From a virus, in UHGV virus genome UHGV-0247665: a DNA stretch of 25,422 bases; one strand, 5' to 3'. Positions 1 to 21,056 of the stretch are shown piece after piece. The notes beneath the pieces were generated by a model, which saw only the letters and a list, made by a program, of their open reading frames with translations, was not told where the DNA came from and searched no databases. Each line of letters starts with the position of its first letter. Within the stretch, counting starts at the first letter, position 1. A program made the position numbers and the translations under genes.

Positions 1-1443
1 TCCATCAAATGATGCATCTGAATACGTATATACTGATTCACTGCCAGCAATTTTAAACTGTTTAACTGAAGTTATTCTCATCGACTTTTTATGTTTAAAT
101 GTCACTGAGCTTTCAGTATTACTTACAAGATCAATCTGAGGGCTATTCCTTATCGCGATTCCTGACTGTACATAAACGTTATTAAAGTGCGTTTTTTCAG
201 GATTTCCCTTCATTGAAAGGCTCCCGTCATTTTCTGTCAGTAGTAGTCCTTTTACCCTCCAATAGCCGACAATCTGTACGTTATCAATAACTGAATCACA
301 GCTATCGTATACATGCAACCCTATATCCCAGTCATCACCCAATGAATAAGAATCAGGGTTATTGTATCCTTCAATACCATTTTTACTTACCATTATTCTC
401 AGGTTGCGTAACTGTGATGCCCTGTTGATACTAACAGCTACGCTCATGGCTTTTGGTGTAGCAGGAGTAACACCTACAGAATCTTCATTTGTAAACTCAG
501 TGAACTTACAAGATATCCCTTCAACAATTTTAACTGGTCTTTCATTAGAGATGTTAAAAAAATATTTGTTTTTTTCTCCATCACCAGTAAATACAAGATG
601 GGTTCCTTTACTCCAACTTTTTAATAATCTTTCAGGCGCTGGTCTATATGTATCCCAATAATCAATGCCATCACCAATTAAAGACACTCCAGGAGGCACA
701 TCTATGTTCTTAGAAATCATCCATTTACCTGCAGGTATTCTAACGACACTTGCACCAGAATTTATCGCATTAATTAACCATTCAGACGCATCAACTTCAA
801 AATTTAATGCAGCATATCTTTGCTCAAACGGAACAAAATCAAGAGCGTTAACGTTATCCCGCATCTTATCCTGGAACGTTCGGTATACTGCTCCAGAACC
901 ATACTGAATAAACCAACCAAAACCACCAACAACTCCGGCGATTGCAGCATCAACATAATTGCGCATTGATCGATTATTTACAGCATCCTGCTCAAGTGAT
1001 GGATCTGCAAGGTTAGAAATTTTGTTTTGCTTTGCATCGTAATATTTTGCAAGCAAAGATGGTTTCATCAATGCACGTCTGAACCATCCAAAACATTGCT
1101 GGATCAGCATCGTCAGATAGTCAAAGGCATCTTCATGCACCTCGGGGAAAAATTTTCCCTGATTACGAAGATCAGTCTCCTGCACCACATCAAGCACACG
1201 ATCTATCGTAATTCGCCATCCAGCAGCAAGCGGCGACGGAAGAACAACAGAACCGCCACTATAAGTGCCCGCCCCTGTTACCGTATAACCGGTATCCAGA
1301 ACCAATTCTGTTACGTTCCCGTTCAGGTCAGACACCTGAACAACCAGGTCGGATTTTTTGAAAATACGGAAGGTATACGGAAATGATGTCGTAGCTCCGT
1401 TACCTGTGTATTCGTTGTGGTCAACTTCGGTTGAGACCGTCAT
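1..1443 (-). CDS. Tailspike / tail fibre protein, N-terminal 481 codons (3' end lies beyond the window start)
   Basis: ATG at 1443 (minus) with GGAG 7 nt upstream. My own minus-strand translation is open from 1443 to position 1; it is absent from the ORF track only because no stop falls inside the window. N-terminus MTVSTEVDHNEYTGNGATTSFPYTFRIFKKSDLVVQV... has the architecture of the T7 gp17-type N-terminal tail-attachment domain. A later segment (ALDFVPFEQRYAALNFEVDASEWLINAINSGASVVRIPAGKW) resembles the start of beta-helix depolymerase domains. GC content drops 3' of roughly nt 900. Confidence 0.8.
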   Translation of the reverse strand, partial: MTVSTEVDHNEYTGNGATTSFPYTFRIFKKSDLVVQVSDLNGNVTELVLDTGYTVTGAGTYSGGSVVLPSPLAAGWRITIDRVLDVVQETDLRNQGKFFPEVHEDAFDYLTMLIQQCFGWFRRALMKPSLLAKYYDAKQNKISNLADPSLEQDAVNNRSMRNYVDAAIAGVVGGFGWFIQYGSGAVYRTFQDKMRDNVNALDFVPFEQRYAALNFEVDASEWLINAINSGASVVRIPAGKWMISKNIDVPPGVSLIGDGIDYWDTYRPAPERLLKSWSKGTHLVFTGDGEKNKYFFNISNERPVKIVEGISCKFTEFTNEDSVGVTPATPKAMSVAVSINRASQLRNLRIMVSKNGIEGYNNPDSYSLGDDWDIGLHVYDSCDSVIDNVQIVGYWRVKGLLLTENDGSLSMKGNPEKTHFNNVYVQSGIAIRNSPQIDLVSNTESSVTFKHKKSMRITSVKQFKIAGSESVYTYSDASFDG

Positions 1444-1547
1444 GTTAAATCTCCAGATAGTCGCAGCACCCGTTGCGCCGCATATCTGGTTATTCTATTA
1501 CCTGAAAAACCACATATGGATAGAAAGACTGTAAATACGAATAGATA

Positions 1548-1562
1548 TTACCTTTCGGGTAA
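1548..1562. promoter_or_regulatory. TTACC-N5-GGTAA palindromic motif copy (ATTACC-tttcg-GGTAAT)
   Basis: In the divergent intergenic region between the tailspike start (1443) and the LexA box/85-aa gene; followed by TTGCAA. Confidence 0.5.
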
Positions 1563-1601
1563 TTTGCAAAACGTGCTGGATAGCAAACAAATTATTTGAT
1601 A

Positions 1602-1617
1602 CTGTATAAATATACAG
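1602..1617 (+). promoter_or_regulatory. LexA (SOS) box, CTGT-N8-ACAG
   Basis: 20-mer TACTGTATAAATATACAGTT (about 1600-1619) matches the E. coli LexA consensus TACTGTATATATATACAGTA at 18 of 20 positions with both CTGT and ACAG arms intact. It is preceded by TTGATA (1596-1601) and lies 21 nt upstream of the ATG at 1639. Confidence 0.75.
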
Positions 1618-1638
1618 TTATTACATGGAGAAGATAAG

Positions 1639-1896
1639 ATGCAGCAGTATCACTATCCACTGGAAGACGGATTTACCGAAAGGATTCACACGCCGGGAGG
1701 CGTCAGGTCACTGGTGGAGGGATCGCACTTGATGAAATTACTCCGGGATCTCGATAAGGATGGATTTAATGTCGATGGCCCACTTGCCGAACTGACTGCA
1801 CTGATTAACTACGTCACCAGCTCACAGATGTCTATGCAGGATCTACAAACACATCTCGACTATTGTGCCGAACAATTACGAAAACAAACCAGATAA
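1639..1896 (+). CDS. Small protein (85 aa) homologous to the C-terminal domain of the downstream antirepressor; candidate SOS-controlled antirepressor or modulator
   Basis: ORF track 1639..1896; GGAG at 1627-1630, 8 nt before the ATG. Its sequence (HTPGGVRSLVEGSHLMKLLRDLDKDGFNVDGPLAELT...DLQTHLDY) aligns with antirepressor residues HSPSGVLGLTENSLLMNLLNQLQEDGHDVSGAAAELT...DIQTHAEY at roughly 35-40% identity by eye. Confidence 0.7.
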   Translation: MQQYHYPLEDGFTERIHTPGGVRSLVEGSHLMKLLRDLDKDGFNVDGPLAELTALINYVTSSQMSMQDLQTHLDYCAEQLRKQTR

Positions 1897-1927
1897 GGTT
1901 TGCAATTACCAAATGGAGTGCTTATAT

Positions 1928-1942
1928 TTACCTTTGCGGTAA
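1928..1942. promoter_or_regulatory. TTACC-N5-GGTAA palindromic motif copy (TTTACC-tttgc-GGTAAA)
   Basis: Between the 85-aa ORF stop and the antirepressor leader; followed by TTTACA. Confidence 0.5.
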
Positions 1943-1977
1943 ATTTACATCGCACTCCTCTTGTGCCATAGTAATCG

Positions 1978-1999
1978 GGCACTGGCAAAATCCAGTGCC
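1978..1999 (+). other. Perfect 8-bp inverted repeat stem-loop (GGCACTGG-caaaat-CCAGTGCC) in the antirepressor leader
   Basis: Read directly from the sequence; no U-run follows, so it is not a classical terminator. Confidence 0.5.
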
Positions 2000-2035
2000 G
2001 GGATTGGCGTCACGAGTTACTACAGAGGCACATAT

Positions 2036-2055
2036 GCCGCATAAGCGGTTTTTTT
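2036..2055 (+). terminator. Weak intrinsic terminator-like hairpin (gCCGC-ataa-GCGGt followed by TTTTTTT)
   Basis: 4-5 bp stem followed by seven T residues, 140 nt downstream of the 85-aa ORF and about 150 nt upstream of the antirepressor start. Confidence 0.35.
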
Positions 2056-2208
2056 ATGTGTAAAGCGCACCTATTCTATGGTGGGCTGTGTGGGGGCACC
2101 GAAAGGTGCGCCGGGTCCTTTGTAGCCGGTTACGCCAACCCTGCACAGTTCACCACCAACCGATTGGCGTCGGTAGTGGTGATTAACCTAACTACAAAGG
2201 TGATCGCT

Positions 2209-2895
2209 ATGACTGCTAACGTAACCCCATCTGTTTTTCATTTTGAATCAGAAGCAACCATTCGAGCCATTGTTATTGATGGAAATCCTTGGTTTGTTGC
2301 CAAAGACGTTATTAAAGCTCTTCAACTGACAAACCCCACTATGTCAATAAAATCTCTTGATGATGATGAAAGGGCTAAATTTAACTTAGGCCGTCAAGGC
2401 GAAACCAATATTATCAACGAGTCAGGCCTCTACACACTGTTCCTCCGCTGCCGCGATGCGGTGACACCAGGCACTACCCCCTACCGCTTTCGTAAATGGG
2501 TTACAGGTGAGGTTCTTCCTCAGATCCGCCGCACCGGAAGCTACATTAAAAACTCGCTCCCGCAGGAAGAACGCATAAAGATGGTTGCCGACCAGGTAGC
2601 CAACGCCACGGCGTCAGCAGTAATGCAGGCGATGAAGATAGAGAACAAAACCTACAGCGCCCCGCTGAAGCCCGGCTACCGCAGTTTGATTCACTCGCCG
2701 TCTGGTGTTCTCGGCCTGACGGAGAACTCACTGCTGATGAATCTGCTGAACCAGTTACAGGAAGACGGGCACGACGTATCGGGCGCGGCGGCGGAACTGA
2801 CCACCATGTTCTGCTACATCGTCGGTGTGAGTAAATGCCTGCGTGATATCCAGACCCACGCGGAATACATCAACGACAAGGCAGGGGTCTTCTGA
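2209..2895 (+). CDS. Phage antirepressor with N-terminal Bro-N domain (228 aa from ATG 2209)
   Basis: In frame within ORF track 2056..2895. The ATG at 2209 is preceded by AAAGGTGA. N-terminus SVFHFESEATIRAIVIDGNPWFVAKDVIKAL...NIINESGLYTLFLRCRD...FRKWVTGEVLPQIRRTGSY matches the Bro-N consensus. The sequence upstream of 2209 within the tracked ORF is structured leader, not coding. Confidence 0.85.
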   Translation: MTANVTPSVFHFESEATIRAIVIDGNPWFVAKDVIKALQLTNPTMSIKSLDDDERAKFNLGRQGETNIINESGLYTLFLRCRDAVTPGTTPYRFRKWVTGEVLPQIRRTGSYIKNSLPQEERIKMVADQVANATASAVMQAMKIENKTYSAPLKPGYRSLIHSPSGVLGLTENSLLMNLLNQLQEDGHDVSGAAAELTTMFCYIVGVSKCLRDIQTHAEYINDKAGVF

Positions 2896-2904
2896 CAGAA
2901 CGGC

Positions 2905-2931
2905 GGCACAGGGATGTGCCTTTAAATAATT
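2905..2931 (+). terminator. Intrinsic terminator after the antirepressor gene (GGCACA-GGGA-TGTGCC then TTTAAATAATT)
   Basis: 6-bp GC-rich stem with a 4-nt loop and a T/A-rich tail, starting 10 nt after the stop at 2893-2895. Confidence 0.5.
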
Positions 2932-2961
2932 CTGTACAGATTGCAGGTGAATAGCGTACTA

Positions 2962-2976
2962 TTACCCCAAAGGTAA
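2962..2976. promoter_or_regulatory. TTACC-N5-GGTAA palindromic motif copy (ACTATTACC-ccaaa-GGTAAG)
   Basis: About 120 nt upstream of the two-gene cassette start; followed by TTGATT. Confidence 0.5.
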
Positions 2977-3093
2977 GAAAGTTGATTTGTAACATTTTAG
3001 TTTGTAGTTACCGTGATGGTTTTGCTGCAGAAAGTTAACTAGTCAAAATCACACCGTATGTAAGTCACGTCTGTTCCCGTATGGGAGGATGAT

Positions 3094-3312
3094 ATGTTTA
3101 AATTTGATATGCAACTCAACCAAAACTATGCCTCTTTTTACCATCCAGAAACTGGTAAAGCTGTTTTCGTTGACTCTTTCGATAATGAAGAATTTGATAT
3201 CAGAATTGGGACCCTACGCCAAAGTAAGCATGTTGCTACTGTACGTGCATCCAATGATGATGAATTAAATCAAAAAATAAGTGAGGCGACCTCCCGTTAT
3301 CTATGTCTATAA
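3094..3312 (+). CDS. Hypothetical protein (72 aa), first gene of an AT-rich two-gene cassette
   Basis: ORF track 3094..3312; strong SD GGGAGG 5 nt before the ATG. Local GC is well below the flanking phage DNA. No recognisable family. Confidence 0.6.
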   Translation: MFKFDMQLNQNYASFYHPETGKAVFVDSFDNEEFDIRIGTLRQSKHVATVRASNDDELNQKISEATSRYLCL

Positions 3313-3680
3313 CAGAACAACAACTCATTGATCTTGAGGATGAGATTAACGAGATCTTGCAAGAAGATGCGGCAAGAATTCACTTTTCATTTCACGCAGC
3401 ATATGAACGCCTGAACGACGAGAGGAACAAACCGCCAATTACTCTTGCTGAGCTTGAAGATGTGTTTAAATCGTTTATATCTGCACATCTGCAGACTGTT
3501 TTGGATTTTGCTGAAGGTACAACTTTCACCATAAAGTGCAACAAAAGCGCCCTTCATTTTCCTTGCGCCATTGTACACGAAAGAGAGTTTGGGAAAACGT
3601 GGGTTATCCAAAACGTCATTACAGCCATGAGGAAAGTGGGATTCAAGTCTAAAGATTCTATTATCCTCGAAGTTAATTAA
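3303..3680 (+). CDS. Hypothetical acidic protein (125 aa), second gene of the cassette, translationally coupled
   Basis: ORF track 3303..3680. Its ATG at 3303 overlaps the upstream stop at 3310-3312 (ATGTCTATAA) with no independent SD in range. Followed directly by a terminator. Confidence 0.65.
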   Translation: MSITEQQLIDLEDEINEILQEDAARIHFSFHAAYERLNDERNKPPITLAELEDVFKSFISAHLQTVLDFAEGTTFTIKCNKSALHFPCAIVHEREFGKTWVIQNVITAMRKVGFKSKDSIILEVN

Positions 3681-3701
3681 GCCCGCACTGAGGGCTTTTT
3701 T
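3679..3701 (+). terminator. Intrinsic terminator (AAGCCC-gcactga-GGGCTT then TTTT)
   Basis: 6-bp stem with a 7-nt loop and a U-run immediately after the TAA at 3678-3680. Confidence 0.6.
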
Positions 3702-3773
3702 ATGGACGAAACAAAAGTCAGTGCTACACTCATTGACGCCACATTGAGGTGGCTTATAGATGGAAATTTCACA

Positions 3774-3935
3774 ATGAAAAAAGCATTTGCTGCACTGTTC
3801 GTTTTGTTGTCTCTGGTAGCTTCAACTCAGGCCTTTGCCGGTCGTTGTCAGCACGACAGCGACACTGCTGCTGACGGCTCCCGCTGCGGTGGGCGTTCTG
3901 CGGATTCCCGCCCGGGTGGCGGTGGCATTCGTTAA
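3774..3935 (+). CDS. Small secreted protein (53 aa precursor; Sec-type signal peptide, about 31-aa Gly/Arg-rich mature part with two Cys)
   Basis: Internal ATG of ORF track 3702..3935. MKKAFAALFVLLSLVASTQAFA is a canonical signal peptide with an AxA cleavage motif; the mature part is GRCQHDSDTAADGSRCGGRSADSRPGGGGIR. Possible promoter TTGACG (3733-3738) and TATAGA (3755-3760). The SD is weak. Confidence 0.5.
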   Translation: MKKAFAALFVLLSLVASTQAFAGRCQHDSDTAADGSRCGGRSADSRPGGGGIR

Positions 3936-3958
3936 AAACAAGGCCGCGAAAGCGGCCT
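3931..3958 (-). terminator. Intrinsic terminator for the minus-strand lipoprotein gene (7-bp GC stem with GNRA-type loop, U-run on the minus strand)
   Basis: AGGCCGC-GAAA-GCGGCCT at 3941-3958. On the minus strand it is followed by TTGTTTTTAAC. It sits between the convergent genes ending at 3935 (+) and 3967 (-). Confidence 0.55.
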
Positions 3959-12375: not shown

Positions 12376-14846
12376 CAGAACCCACCAACAGTAAGGCGAG
12401 GAATAACGGCAAGAACAGACAGCGGCAACGGATCAAGCTGACGGATTTTTACACGTCCGTTTTTTCCCCAGTTACTGTCCAGTTTCACTTCTACTTTTCC
12501 GGTAGCATCATCAACAGGATCATCGTAGAACTCGAATTCACGCTGTGGATATTCGTACCATTTACCGCCGGGCGTAGTCGCCCAGATGCCGCGACTGGCA
12601 TTCACAACCAGAGTAACGGAGGGGATCACCTGTTTTTTGTCCAGCAGCGTTTCCTGTCCGTTAATGTTGATATCCAGTGTTTCGAATTCAGCAGTTATTG
12701 GCAGGCCGATGTGCACTACAGCCCCCGGAGATTCCAGCGTGACGGCACCTCCGGAAACCACTTTCTGTGGTTCCACGTTCGCATCAGAGAGAATGTTTAC
12801 GGTCTGGCCTTCAAGATGAGACAGGCCTCCAAATGTCCGGCGCGCCATCTGCCAGTTCGTGGTGGCCACATTCCTGAGGGATGGCGGGACGTTCCTGTTA
12901 GCACGAACCACTACAGCGGTATTGCTGGTTACAGAAATAATGTCGCAACGTAATTCTTTTGACACCTCATCGCCAGTATCAGGATCAGTTCCGGTATAAG
13001 GGAACTGTAGTTGCGCGCCGACATCACTACTGGTGAAGTACGCACCACCAGAAACACTGATTGTATATTCCGCGCGGTAATCCCATTCGCCAGAACCACC
13101 AGTGATGATCATCGTTCTGTCAGACGTATTTCTTCCATCATAGCTAAGGCCAGAATCAACAAAGAAAGCATCTTCATCGCTGGTAAATAAACGGCTGGAC
13201 AGTCGCTCGATGTATCTCACTGTTTGCCCGTTAACGGTTCGGTTAACGACGAAATACACCGCATCTTCATTGCCTTCGCTGATACTGCATGTGCTTTCAT
13301 ATTTTCCGGTACTGGATTGTGGTGCCCATGCAAAAACCTGCTGATCACGCAAATAGGTCATCACCAGTAATTTACCGTCATCACGGATGCAGAAGGCGCT
13401 GGAGTAAGGGACTATTGAGAAGCACCAGTCAACAATGCTGTGCTTCTGAAAAAGATGATTGGCAAGGATAGTAAGGTCGTTCCCCTGATAGCCGTCAACA
13501 TCGAATGAGTAGGCCAGATCACGGACAACACTGCCTTTCTCCTGGACGAACAGAGCAATATTCGCCACGGCAATTGGTGGGACATTGCTCGAGCCATTTG
13601 ATCCCTGAGAGCTGAATGCAAATGATGATGGGGTAAGCACTTTGTTCTGGTCGCCAGTGATGACGTACTCACCTCCGGAAGTCAGCGCCACCAGCGAACC
13701 AACATCAATCAGGTGACGGATCTCATTAACCTGACGCCCGGCATAGGTGTAGATAATTCTGTCGTCATCCTGCGTAGGATTGCTTTTGCCAAAATCCTTA
13801 TAATCCCCAGTACGGCTGGCCCAGATAGTCTGAGGGAACGCAGTCGATGCGGCGAAGTAAAGACGCTGTTGATAATAAACAACAGTGCCAGGATAACCAT
13901 TAACACTGTTCCAGGCATATTTAGCCCATTTATAGCTGGCATTATCCTCGCCAACGACCTGCGAAGGGATATAGGAAATCACCTCGGCAGTTGCAGTAGT
14001 GCCGTTTACAGCAGTGATACGGGTAATGCCAAAACCACTGTGCAGATACTCCCACTCAATGCCAGTATCATCATCACCGGATCCGCCCCAGCCATCCCAT
14101 GATGTGCCTTCTGTATGCGAAGGGCGCAAAGTACCTGTTTTGCCTGCTGTAACGGCGCGATAGTAGTTACTGTCTGCACGGCGAATATCGCCAATCGACG
14201 TACTCTTACTGGTTTCCCATACCGGCACAGAATCCACTGCAGGCTGTTCCAGATAGAACAATTTGCCTACCTGCTCCGCGCCAAAAATAGAGGCGCTTGC
14301 CGTTAACGTAATTGTCCCGGTGCTGGCGCTGGCATAAACCGTCACTGACTCGTCAATATTGATATCTTCAAATGGCCCGTTCTTCGTTACCACATCAACC
14401 AGTTGCCAGTTGTCATGCGCATAGCGGCGCAACTCTTTCGGCGGGTATGCCGGATGAACCAGCGTAAGCACGTCTGCGCTTTGCGTGAATTTAATTCGGA
14501 ACAGATCGGTTTCAGTATATGGCGTGGAAATTTCATAAATAACATTGCTGCTGTTCAGCACCAACGCACCATCTTTGATAACGCGCATATACTGGTGTCC
14601 GAACTCCAGAGCATAAGTCTGAACCGTCGAGAACTGGAACGGGATCAGGCGGCATTTCCGATTTGGGTATTTGGCGGCACCGACAAAACGCGTACCAGGT
14701 CGATTCTCAACTCCGCCATACTGCCGCACGATAAAGTTATCGCACTTGCGCAATGCCACCTGGTACTTCGCCATGTCGATACGACCGTACAACGACGGTC
14801 CAATCTCACCACCGGCAAAGCTGGGCTGGATCCAACTGATAGCCAT
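12375..14846 (-). CDS. Tail tubular protein B / nozzle (T7 gp12-like, 823 aa)
   Basis: ORF track. About 800 aa, immediately downstream of a gp11-like gene. Assigned by size, order and overall resemblance to T7 gp12; not verified by search. Confidence 0.65.
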   Translation of the reverse strand: MAISWIQPSFAGGEIGPSLYGRIDMAKYQVALRKCDNFIVRQYGGVENRPGTRFVGAAKYPNRKCRLIPFQFSTVQTYALEFGHQYMRVIKDGALVLNSSNVIYEISTPYTETDLFRIKFTQSADVLTLVHPAYPPKELRRYAHDNWQLVDVVTKNGPFEDINIDESVTVYASASTGTITLTASASIFGAEQVGKLFYLEQPAVDSVPVWETSKSTSIGDIRRADSNYYRAVTAGKTGTLRPSHTEGTSWDGWGGSGDDDTGIEWEYLHSGFGITRITAVNGTTATAEVISYIPSQVVGEDNASYKWAKYAWNSVNGYPGTVVYYQQRLYFAASTAFPQTIWASRTGDYKDFGKSNPTQDDDRIIYTYAGRQVNEIRHLIDVGSLVALTSGGEYVITGDQNKVLTPSSFAFSSQGSNGSSNVPPIAVANIALFVQEKGSVVRDLAYSFDVDGYQGNDLTILANHLFQKHSIVDWCFSIVPYSSAFCIRDDGKLLVMTYLRDQQVFAWAPQSSTGKYESTCSISEGNEDAVYFVVNRTVNGQTVRYIERLSSRLFTSDEDAFFVDSGLSYDGRNTSDRTMIITGGSGEWDYRAEYTISVSGGAYFTSSDVGAQLQFPYTGTDPDTGDEVSKELRCDIISVTSNTAVVVRANRNVPPSLRNVATTNWQMARRTFGGLSHLEGQTVNILSDANVEPQKVVSGGAVTLESPGAVVHIGLPITAEFETLDININGQETLLDKKQVIPSVTLVVNASRGIWATTPGGKWYEYPQREFEFYDDPVDDATGKVEVKLDSNWGKNGRVKIRQLDPLPLSVLAVIPRLTVGGF

Positions 14847-15454
14847 CAGGACAACCTCGCAATGGTAAACTCGTCAACCGGTGGCAGTGGTTCCTGTGAT
14901 TCATTCTGGCTATGCGAGCCAGCACTAAGAATCACGCGATTGTACATATTGAGGGCAAACGTACCGAGGTCTGCATTCCCAGTCAGCGCCATGTTAATAG
15001 CTGCCGCAAGACGCCAGGCCAACGCCTCCATAAAAATGGCATCAAACATGTTCACATCTGAAACGCGAGAGACATACTTGAGCCATGCCTGCGGCTGGTC
15101 TGTGTAGATCAACTTTCCTGTTCCGTTGGTGTCTGCACCAACTTCGTACTGAACGCGCATTGCTGCTGTTGGATTGCGTACACCAGGAAGCATAATTTCA
15201 GTAATGCGCAGACAATCGGACGGGTACTGATACGCATATTCCCAGTCAGGCGGTGGATTGCTCGTATCTGCAAGCGCCACGCGTTTGGTAGCAAAGTTCC
15301 AGTCAAAATCAGAAAGCACAGCATCACGGCAGGCCTCAAAGTGCAGCGAACATTCCCCCGCTTCCTTGCTGGCTTCCGTCAGGCTGTTAATGCTGCGGCT
15401 ATTGCCAATATTGGACAGCGCACGATTACAGATCTCTACTACAGAGGCCATCAC
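14846..15454 (-). CDS. Tail tubular protein A / adaptor (T7 gp11-like, 202 aa)
   Basis: ORF track. About 200 aa. Its N-terminal VEICNRALSNIGNSRSINSLTEASKEAGEC pattern resembles the T7 gp11 N-terminus; position upstream of the nozzle gene. Confidence 0.6.
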   Translation of the reverse strand: MMASVVEICNRALSNIGNSRSINSLTEASKEAGECSLHFEACRDAVLSDFDWNFATKRVALADTSNPPPDWEYAYQYPSDCLRITEIMLPGVRNPTAAMRVQYEVGADTNGTGKLIYTDQPQAWLKYVSRVSDVNMFDAIFMEALAWRLAAAINMALTGNADLGTFALNMYNRVILSAGSHSQNESQEPLPPVDEFTIARLS

Positions 15455-20979: not shown

Positions 20980-21056
20980 GTGGCATTAGCTCAGTTGGAC
21001 AGAGCAACCGCCTTCTAAGCGGTTGGTCGCAGGTTCGAATCCTGCATGCCACGCCA
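20980..21056 (+). tRNA. tRNA-Arg (anticodon UCU), 77 nt with encoded CCA
   Basis: Folded by hand: 7-bp acceptor stem GTGGCAT/ATGCCAC, D-arm, anticodon stem ACCGC/GCGGT with loop CTTCTAA (U33, anticodon TCT, A37), T-arm GCAGG-TTCGAAT-CCTGC, discriminator G, CCA. Close to the E. coli argU-type tRNA. Confidence 0.92.

Follow-up and report, generated by a model that had tools for sequence, protein, structure and literature searches.

A mosaic prophage tailspike gene with a remote T7-type anchor module and a low-GC, putative beta-helix cassette shared with P22-type tailspikes

The DNA analysed here (the window, 25,422 nucleotides of virus genome UHGV-0247665) most probably carries, on the minus strand of its first 1443 nucleotides, the first 481 of the 918 residues of the receptor-binding tailspike of an E. 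coli prophage of the epsilon15/phiV10 type (Uetakevirus); the gene appears to be a recently swapped mosaic, and we put the probability of this reading at roughly 85%. The tailspike is a four-part mosaic (aa 1-196, 197-257, 258-759 and 760-918), a patchwork that homologous recombination probably put together at joints of conserved sequence. The modular exchange of tailspikes is amply documented and belongs to textbook knowledge; this gene is a plain, ordinary example of how a phage changes its host range, and it leaves current understanding unchanged.

Reading frame and genomic context

The gene starts with an ATG at 1443-1441, and its frame stays open to base 1. The sequence-only reading had proposed a real frame, missing from the list of open reading frames and cut by the window edge, and this was borne out by the 481 open codons, the GGAG upstream of the start and a 918-aa orthologue. 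The frame is absent from the list because the list omits ORFs running off the window end. A chance open frame is ruled out by the match of the fragment to PHROG 1171 'tail spike protein' (E 3e-172, aa 1-480). A search of the tailspike protein against NCBIfam returned no family. The full-length orthologue in NZ_OZ040490 (L003, 6687-9443) is a single intact ORF with 2 differences in the first 1443 nt; it reads on to residue 918, and no stop was found just past position 1. Beyond codon 481, where the window ends, the tailspike is known from orthologues with 98-99.9% gene identity. The features are collected in Table 1.

Table 1. Features of the tailspike gene and of its predicted docking partners in the window
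Feature	Position	Strand	Basis
Tailspike gene, 5' part (481 of 918 codons)	1..1443	-	Open frame; PHROG 1171; near-identical prophages
Shine-Dalgarno GGAG	1451..1454	-	7 nt 5' of the tailspike ATG, read off the sequence
Particle-binding (anchor) module, aa 1-196	856..1443	-	Carin-1 match, AF2, Foldseek, hhalign, megablast ends
Beta-sandwich of the anchor module (predicted), aa ~6-85	1189-1428	-	AF2, pLDDT ~88
Joint segment, aa 197-257 (putative N-terminal cap and first beta-helix turns)	673..855	-	GC 0.37; sub-threshold PF12708
Putative receptor-binding beta-helix cassette, window part, aa 258-481	1..672	-	nt identity to P22-type tailspike genes, break at nt 670; AF2/Foldseek of P0003
Tail nozzle, predicted docking partner of the anchor module	12378..14846	-	8ck1_A Carin-1 nozzle, E 5.3e-217; PHROG 376 tail protein
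Tail adaptor ('connector'), predicted docking partner of the anchor module	14849..15454	-	8ck1_E Carin-1 connector, E 1.5e-26; PHROG 394 tail protein

As had been proposed, transcription is divergent: the tailspike gene points away from the plus-strand ORF at 1639-1896 and the antirepressor block, and the structural operon, further up, shares its strand. Genes for a holin, a GH19 endolysin and a DUF2514-domain protein (a possible spanin) come next on the 3' side in the orthologous prophage. The window also encodes a terminase, a T7-type portal (PF12236), an epsilon15 GP7 capsid protein and a T7_gp14-like protein (PF24072), and its best phage matches are Uetakevirus.

The gene could instead sit in a defective prophage remnant and be out of use. 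A promoter scan found no sigma-70-like promoter on the minus strand 5' of the gene, and the related GenBank record KM389360 has frameshifts in its tailspike gene; that record, however, is flagged UNVERIFIED, whereas the RefSeq orthologue is intact and the window part is matched end to end in 14 complete genomes. The packaging, head and tail gene set in the window looks complete, and Phi05_1387 B was deposited as an Escherichia phage. We consider a remnant very unlikely, and a pseudogene was rejected because the examined orthologue is intact.

Anchor module and its predicted docking partners

The shared N-terminal module spans 196 codons rather than the 110-150 first suggested. Past the beta-sandwich it continues as a linker/coiled-coil region with the last residues ...YRTFQDKMRD. 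Judged by sequence, its nearest family is of the epsilon15/phiV10/Carin-1 type: the Dpo31/Carin-1 fibre (PDB 28lx/8ck1) matched tailspike aa 1-180 with E 5.5e-32, a profile of 20 N-modules matched the Dpo31/Carin-1 chain with E 3.8e-64, and many PHROG tail-spike and tail-fibre families matched aa 1-166 or 1-203. When the AF2 model of the module, which is confident for aa 6-85 only, was compared by Foldseek, the top 26 matches were all podovirus fibre or spike anchors.

The module had been described as a T7 gp17-type adaptor. This description held as remote homology but not as membership of the T7 tail family, PF03906 (Phage_T7_tail), which reached 16.0 bits (E 0.0099) on the fragment, below the gathering cutoff of 25.2, over aa 135-161 against profile positions 123-149, and 14 bits against the same cutoff on the full-length orthologue. 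Foldseek matched the T7 gp17 N-terminus with probability 1.0 and TMt ~0.5 (7boz_a, E 3.1e-5; 7ey9_a, 2.6e-5; 8dsp_E, 1.2e-5). An hhalign comparison with just one T7 sequence reached E 0.0011 at a probability of 20%, and a T7 family of 11 members was therefore built. Alignment of the 20 N-modules with these 11 T7 gp17 N-termini gave a probability of 96.5% (E 9.2e-10, score 63.2) and was collinear over 130 columns, from query 11-163 to T7 10-152; the reversed control gave 0.3%, and the best of 21 controls, 20 of them column shuffles, scored 24.7, well short of the 63.2 of the true pair. In a search of PDB sequences with the N-module family profile, T7 fibres were reached only at E ~0.6. BLASTP against T7 gp17 (E 0.11 on only 22 residues) was set aside as not usable alone for homology. 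Profile and fold comparison together support remote homology between the anchor module and the N-terminal domain of T7 gp17. An anchor that is very widespread among E. coli prophages would thereby be linked with both the T7 gp17 fold and the solved Carin-1 tail complex.

In related virions, the fibre trimer touches both the adaptor and the nozzle (PMC12407071; PMC13317679). Since N-module, adaptor and nozzle all have homologues in the Carin-1 tail complex, the N-module, a beta-sandwich with a coiled-coil neck, is predicted to plug into the adaptor/nozzle junction. By the same homology, the tailspike would trimerise and six trimers would ring the short tail.

Exchange and probable function of the low-GC cassette

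Genome comparison places the anchor module in hundreds of E. coli prophages, where it is combined with a wide variety of bodies. By megablast, the gene was matched in 508 of 5426 complete E. coli genomes; most matches ended at nt 834-860, and 14 covered the whole window part (identity 98.2-99.9% in the two listed). The module was 93-96% identical at the nucleotide level in most sampled genomes of the approximately 480 bearing other bodies. Near-identical N-modules (97-99.5%) occurred in proteins with GH28-like, endosialidase, peptidase-G2 or SGNH hydrolase bodies, and E. coli APEC O1 carries the same N-module fused to an endosialidase. With aa 1-170 as query and a limit of E <= 1e-3, 26,787 representative sequences were retrieved, each standing for a cluster at 50% identity; the relatives listed in that representative search are all at least 60% identical, with remote family members falling outside them.

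The body, conversely, travels with other N-termini. It was found in 29 genomes, in 16 of them within P22-type genes. In 16 E. coli genomes, genes annotated 'phage tailspike protein' were 99.0-99.4% identical to bases 1-670, where the similarity stopped sharply, and aa 258-481 were 99.6% identical to tailspikes bearing a P22 head-binding domain instead. The complete cassette, aa 258-759 (GC 0.36), was delimited to gene nt 774-2278 by comparison with the P22-type gene of strain 04-00955, to which it was 97.7% identical; its flanks lay outside the blastn match and showed ~25-70% identity in a forced global alignment. Members of the body family were in addition seen behind Tail_spike_N (PF18668), which makes at least three unrelated virion anchors, the other two being of the T7/epsilon15 and P22 head-binding types. 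The joint segment, by comparison, has no close relative: its identity was at most 60% to every one of 251 retrieved proteins. The near-identical N-module on other bodies and the near-identical body on a P22 head-binding domain support the proposed mosaic, and the identity that breaks off at nt 670 supports the proposed recent horizontal swap of the body. The low-GC cassette was probably exchanged recently between this gene type and P22-head-binding-type tailspike genes.

Strain 04-00955 is O2:H6, the only firm serotype among the carrier strains examined for an O-antigen target.

The sequence-only reading had also noted a sharp fall of GC toward lower coordinates, and the fall is real. GC is 0.48 over aa 1-110, 0.42 over aa 111-196 and 0.365 over aa 197-481 (GC3 0.26), against 0.49 for the whole window; by module, from the N- to the C-terminus, it is 0.45, 0.37, 0.36 and 0.45. 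The 855-nt stretch from base 1 (GC 0.365) lies near the bottom of the distribution of 855-nt stretches in the window (minimum 0.364, mean 0.494, sd 0.032), 0.02% of which are as low or lower. The recombination joints mapped to codons 196/197 and 257/258. The onset of the drop is at approximately codon 110-120, inside the conserved N-module, and the GC step therefore does not mark a recombination joint. That same onset, away from any joint, is what one might expect if low 3' GC came from the residues or codons that a beta-helix requires, under vertical evolution, rather than from a foreign origin. However, the cassette has a GC3 of 0.26 compared with 0.41-0.61 in structural genes, and the bias therefore sits at synonymous sites; in addition, similarity to the P22-type genes is lost abruptly, and numerous unrelated bodies follow the N-module elsewhere. 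A purely compositional origin was rejected on the low GC3 and the sharp breakpoints; it is largely refuted and, in our estimate, extremely improbable.

For the beta-helix body that had been proposed downstream of the adaptor, AF2 modelling was done on a proxy, P0003, which is 99.6% identical over aa 258-481. Foldseek matched the P0003 model with probability 1.0 to the P22 and Sf6 tailspikes, WceF, phiAB6, CBA120 TSP1 and GH28, and the fold matches also included GH87, bearing the proposal out at the level of the proxy. The model shows a short-strand pattern with a mean pLDDT of 71; global TM-scores to the P22 and Sf6 tailspikes are low (0.15-0.21), and the best TMt of any body-type match is ~0.49 (RbmB lyase). 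PF12708 scored 16.7 bits on the fragment (aa 225-261), below its cutoff of 27. This proxy evidence supports, with moderate confidence, a right-handed beta-helix as the central domain. The helix (aa ~205-750) would bind, and probably cleave or deacetylate, a host surface polysaccharide (O-antigen or capsule), and binding would thereby set the host range.

A body that binds its receptor without depolymerising it, as a non-enzymatic fibre or adhesin, is also conceivable. Pfam gave no catalytic family above threshold in aa 260-700, no PDB sequence relative of the body was found, leaving aa 258-700 without a characterised sequence relative, and the orthologue is annotated at NCBI only as 'tail fiber domain-containing protein'. 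On the other hand, the fold matches listed above are depolymerases and glycanases; Dpo31, with the same anchor module, breaks down host exopolysaccharide (PMC13317679), and epsilon15 gp20 is an endorhamnosidase (PMC5380687). An adhesin is therefore judged unlikely, and an enzymatic tailspike is preferred. We suggest only tentatively that the cassette is a depolymerase directed at a surface glycan of E. coli, with a specificity or catalytic family not characterised so far, and that it is moved via the conserved GIDYWDTYRPAP and RWAQVYSA stretches as dedicated recombination joints.

The fourth part of the mosaic lies outside the window. In the full-length orthologue, aa 760-918 form a K1F-endosialidase-type chaperone (PF13884, Peptidase_S74, scoring 40.6 bits with the cutoff at 22), and 3gw6 matched this C-terminus with E 4.7e-34. 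The TSDGREK motif seen in the orthologue contains Ser758 and Lys763, a Ser/Lys dyad; the intramolecular chaperone would help the trimer to fold and then probably be cut off.

Tailspikes determine which strains can be infected, and engineers swap them to retarget phages, tailocins and diagnostic reagents. The gene offers a natural example with precisely mapped joints (codons 196/197, 257/258 and ~759/760), in which one receptor-binding cassette is carried on two virion chassis with ~99% DNA identity in the window part and 97.7% over the whole cassette. Since the cassette is near-identical on both, the joints are usable fusion points for chimeric tailspikes.

Comparison with known tailspike systems

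The tailspikes of Uetakevirus (epsilon15 gp20, phiV10 and vB_EcoP_ZX5) share the genus-level context, the N-module and the location immediately ahead of the lysis genes. At the nucleotide level, similarity to phiV10 sets in at window nt 1320 and continues into the region upstream; similarity to ZX5 sets in at nt 856. Their receptor-binding bodies differ, the ZX5 gene encoding 1039 aa, whereas the cassette studied here is without a characterised relative. phiV10 is O157-specific, and gp20 of epsilon15 is a Salmonella endorhamnosidase (PMC5380687).

Dpo31 of the marine podovirus Carin-1 (28lx, 28mg, 8ck1) has a comparable anchor of D1 beta-sandwich and D2 coiled coil, with 51% identity in the Foldseek alignment, and the Carin-1 nozzle and connector are homologous to the nozzle and adaptor of the window. 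A beta-helix (D3) and a C-terminal D4 that is cleaved are present in Dpo31 too (PMC13317679). However, its beta-helix body is without detectable sequence similarity to this one, and it has another host and another substrate (Cobetia exopolysaccharide). The T7 gp17 N-terminal domain (PF03906; 7boz, 7ey9) is alike in ~130 collinear residues, in fold class and in its adaptor/nozzle docking site, but the T7 body is a fibre with a C-terminal tip domain and not a beta-helix enzyme.

The K1F endosialidase follows the same three-part plan of T7-type N-terminus, catalytic body and C-terminal intramolecular chaperone, and the chaperone is homologous; its body is a sialidase beta-propeller, whereas a beta-helix is predicted here. 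Adaptor swapping around one body is known from the K1F endosialidase and its P22-type counterpart CUS-3 (PMC5380687). Finally, tailspikes of the P22/Sf6/HK620 type (Head_binding, PF09008) include proteins with a near-identical cassette (P0003/WP_194085859). These proteins carry another variant of the C-terminal chaperone, and their P22 head-binding domain attaches to a P22-type tail hub, whereas the tailspike of the window has a T7/epsilon15-type anchor.

Open frame and base composition

Translation of the reverse strand of window 1-1443 gave 481 stop-free codons from an ATG at 1443-1441, with a ribosome site (GGAG) 7 nt 5' of it. The frame is missing from the mechanical ORF list because it runs off the window. 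The 855-nt stretch from base 1 has a GC of 0.365, at the bottom of the window distribution (minimum 0.364, mean 0.494, sd 0.032), and only 0.02% of the window stretches are as low or lower. The open frame and the GC fall toward its 3' part, both described in the sequence-only reading, are therefore real, but the fall sets in at about codon 110-120, inside the conserved anchor module. A second low-GC stretch was seen on the plus strand (855-nt windows with a GC of 0.40 or less begin at 2903-2986); its two small ORFs have no Pfam match and look like moron-type cargo.

Tailspike gene modules, neighbouring features and structural genes of the window
Feature	Position (strand)	Property
Tailspike aa 1-110		GC 0.48
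Tailspike aa 111-196		GC 0.42
Tailspike aa 197-481		GC 0.365; GC3 0.26
Anchor module, aa 1-196		GC 0.45
Joint segment, aa 197-257	673-855 (-)	GC 0.37
Cassette, aa 258-759		GC 0.36
Chaperone, aa 760-918		GC 0.45
Whole window		GC 0.49
Large structural genes		GC3 0.41-0.61
Palindrome TTACC-N5/6-GGTAA	1548-1565; 1671-1683 (reverse complement); 1928-1945	three copies
LexA/SOS box	1600-1619 (+)	2 mismatches to consensus
SOS-box ORF	1639-1896 (+)	85 aa
isrK RNA (Rfam)	1979-2055 (+)	65.5 bits
C4 antisense RNA (Rfam)	2074-2160 (+)	79.5 bits
BRO-N domain protein ORF	2209-2895 (+)	Pfam 3.8e-19
Second low-GC stretch	~2900-3840 (+)
Small ORFs in second low-GC stretch	3094-3312; 3303-3680 (+)	no Pfam match
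Terminator-like hairpin	3941-3958 (-)	AGGCCGC-TTTC-GCGGCCT, then T run
tRNA-Arg	20980-21056 (+)	anticodon TCT
Small and large terminase		packaging genes
T7-type portal		PF12236
Epsilon15 GP7 capsid protein		PF20911
Adaptor protein		202 aa
Nozzle protein		823 aa
T7_gp14-like and other internal virion proteins		structural genes

Genomic context of the gene

The GenBank record KM389360, labelled UNVERIFIED (Escherichia phage Phi05_1387 B, a Uetakevirus), is 99.9% identical to window 1-2200. The tailspike gene is frameshifted there, with KM389360.1 5059-7442 split into several frames, probably through homopolymer sequencing errors rather than real pseudogenisation. The E. coli chromosome NZ_OZ040490 carries an intact gene of 918 aa with 2 differences in the first 1443 nt (WP_001531864.1, 'tail fiber domain-containing protein'); the stop codon just past position 1, which the sequence-only reading had considered as an objection to a tailspike, is therefore absent. 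The proposal that the gene is part of a defective remnant is contradicted by this intact orthologue and by full-length matches in 14 complete genomes. On NZ_OZ040490, two holin genes, a GH19 endolysin gene and a DUF2514-domain gene (possible spanin) were found 3' of the tailspike gene, past which the prophage end adjoins yfgI.

The remainder of the window is an epsilon15-like podovirus module for packaging, head and tail. A plus-strand block (1639 to ~3935) lies between these genes and the tailspike gene, which shares their strand and runs divergently from the block. A scan of the minus strand upstream of the tailspike gene yielded no sigma-70-like promoter. A strong hairpin resembling an intrinsic terminator lies past the last late-operon ORF and raises the issue of how transcription gets to the tailspike and lysis genes beyond it. 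The tRNA-Arg gene falls between the terminase and portal regions and is oriented against the packaging and head genes.

Upstream of the tailspike gene, a LexA/SOS box close to consensus, TACTGTATAAATATACAGTT (chance expectation, 0 matches), is flanked by TTGATA and TATTAC hexamers 5' of a small ORF of no assigned function, which suggests that this gene beside the antirepressor block may be SOS-controlled. The TTACC-N5/6-GGTAA palindromes flank this ORF and occur within it, and may be operator sites for a regulator. The Hfq-binding sRNA isrK and the C4 RNA lie directly 5' of the BRO-N ORF, whose counterpart in phage ZX5 is annotated as an anti-repressor; this order resembles a P1/P7 immI-like c4-ant antirepressor module, here separating the tailspike from the tail genes.

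Recombination joints

With aa 1-170 as the query (E <= 1e-3), 26,787 representatives of 50%-identity clusters were retrieved; in the best 150 of these the anchor is 60-98% identical, yet the proteins belong to different whole-protein clusters. By megablast, the gene has a match in 508 of 5426 complete E. coli genomes and a whole-gene match in only 14. Most matches stop at nt 834-860 (codon 196-203), directly past ...YRTFQDKMRD, and the bodies beyond are annotated as GH28-related, endosialidase (e.g. APEC O1), S74 tail fibre or SGNH hydrolase.

Only 29 genomes contain the body (nt 1-855), 13 of them in this same gene and 16 in 'phage tailspike protein' genes, the latter with 99.0-99.4% nucleotide identity and a sharp end at nt 670. 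One of these 16 (strain 04-00955, annotated 'phage tailspike protein') was taken for comparison, together with a protein representative, P0003, which has the P22 head-binding domain (PF09008, E 7.5e-66). Gene-to-gene alignment with 04-00955 delimited a common cassette of 97.7% identity, spanning aa 258-759 (gene nt 774-2278); its flanks, at ~25-70% identity in a forced global alignment, fall outside the blastn match, and the C-terminal chaperones are unlike. A third N-terminus, Tail_spike_N (PF18668), precedes a more diverged form of the body (65-79% aa identity). Of the carrier-strain serotypes, sought as a pointer to the target glycan, only O2:H6 was obtained, for 04-00955.

The mosaic tailspike proposed earlier is thus borne out, with one anchor joined to many bodies and the body joined to a P22-type anchor. 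Both GC3 and the sharp breakpoints contradict a low GC due to composition alone. The cassette is ~99% similar across two anchor types, against 93-96% for the anchor among most epsilon15-type prophages. The exchange is therefore recent relative to anchor divergence, in line with the recent horizontal swap supposed in the sequence-only reading. The joint segment had no close relative among 251 retrieved proteins (<=60% aa identity), unlike the neighbouring anchor and cassette, which both have near-identical copies elsewhere.

Anchor, body and chaperone

The anchor (aa 1-196) matches the N-terminal D1-D2 of Dpo31, the tailspike of marine podovirus Carin-1 (PDB 28lx/8ck1), at E 5.5e-32. It also has hits in dozens of tail-spike and tail-fibre PHROGs, spanning aa 1-166 or 1-203. 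The window nozzle matches the Carin-1 nozzle (E 5e-217) and the window adaptor the Carin-1 connector (E 1.5e-26); in tails of this T7-like kind, adaptor and nozzle are both in contact with the fibre trimer (PMC12407071; PMC13317679).

The suggestion of a T7 gp17-type adaptor was retained as remote homology, but not as membership of the Pfam family: PF03906 scored 16 bits, short of its cutoff (25.2), and covered only aa 135-161. BLASTP to T7 gp17 gave E 0.11, and the family profile reached T7 fibres in the PDB only at E ~0.6, though collinearly. When 20 diverse anchor modules were aligned by hhalign with 11 members of the gp17 N-terminal family (T7, Yersinia, Pseudomonas, Vibrio, Ralstonia, Klebsiella, Kayfunavirus and cyanophage genomes), the probability was 96.5% (E 9.2e-10, score 63.2) over 130 collinear columns (query 11-163, T7 10-152); reversed-alignment and 20 column-shuffle controls scored <=24.7. 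The AF2 anchor model has a confident beta-sandwich (aa 6-85, pLDDT ~88) followed by a weak helical region, as expected when a trimeric coiled coil is modelled as a monomer. Foldseek ranked Carin-1 best (1.3e-11), followed by LME-1, PhiM1, the T7 gp17 N-terminus (7boz/7ey9/8dsp, ~1e-5 to 3e-5), Kp7/Kp9 fibres and a cyanophage fibre, and all of the top 26 matches were podovirus fibre anchors. By profile and model comparison, the anchor is thus remotely homologous to the N-terminal domain of T7 gp17, and its predicted docking role is the same. The anchor lies outside PF03906 as curated and belongs to its own family, of the epsilon15/phiV10/Carin-1 type.

In the joint segment, a pectate-lyase-like cap motif scored below threshold (PF12708, 16.7 bits). 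For the body, aa 258-759, neither Pfam nor the PDB has a sequence relative, and the NCBIfam search of the protein found no family. The body was viewed through a model of P0003 (99.6% identical over aa 258-481), which has a short-strand beta-helix pattern and Foldseek matches at probability 1.0 to the P22 and Sf6 tailspikes, WceF, phiAB6, CBA120 TSP1, GH28 and GH87; this proxy supports the beta-helix body predicted earlier. In the orthologue, aa 760-918, which fall outside the window, are a Peptidase_S74 intramolecular chaperone (PF13884, 40.6 bits; K1F endosialidase chaperone 3gw6, E 4.7e-34), with the Ser758/Lys763 dyad in TSDGREK.

These results are best explained by a tailspike that would be trimeric, with its T7/epsilon15-type anchor docked at the adaptor-nozzle junction. 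Its beta-helix would bind a host surface polysaccharide and probably degrade it, a non-enzymatic adhesin being a less likely alternative; the chaperone would be released by autocleavage after folding.

Tailspikes generally have an anchor at the N-terminus, a beta-helix in the middle and a chaperone at the C-terminus and evolve by domain swapping, the classic case being one endosialidase common to K1F (T7-type anchor) and CUS-3 (P22-type anchor) (PMC5380687). The present gene is a further case of this modular exchange, here of an uncharacterised cassette.
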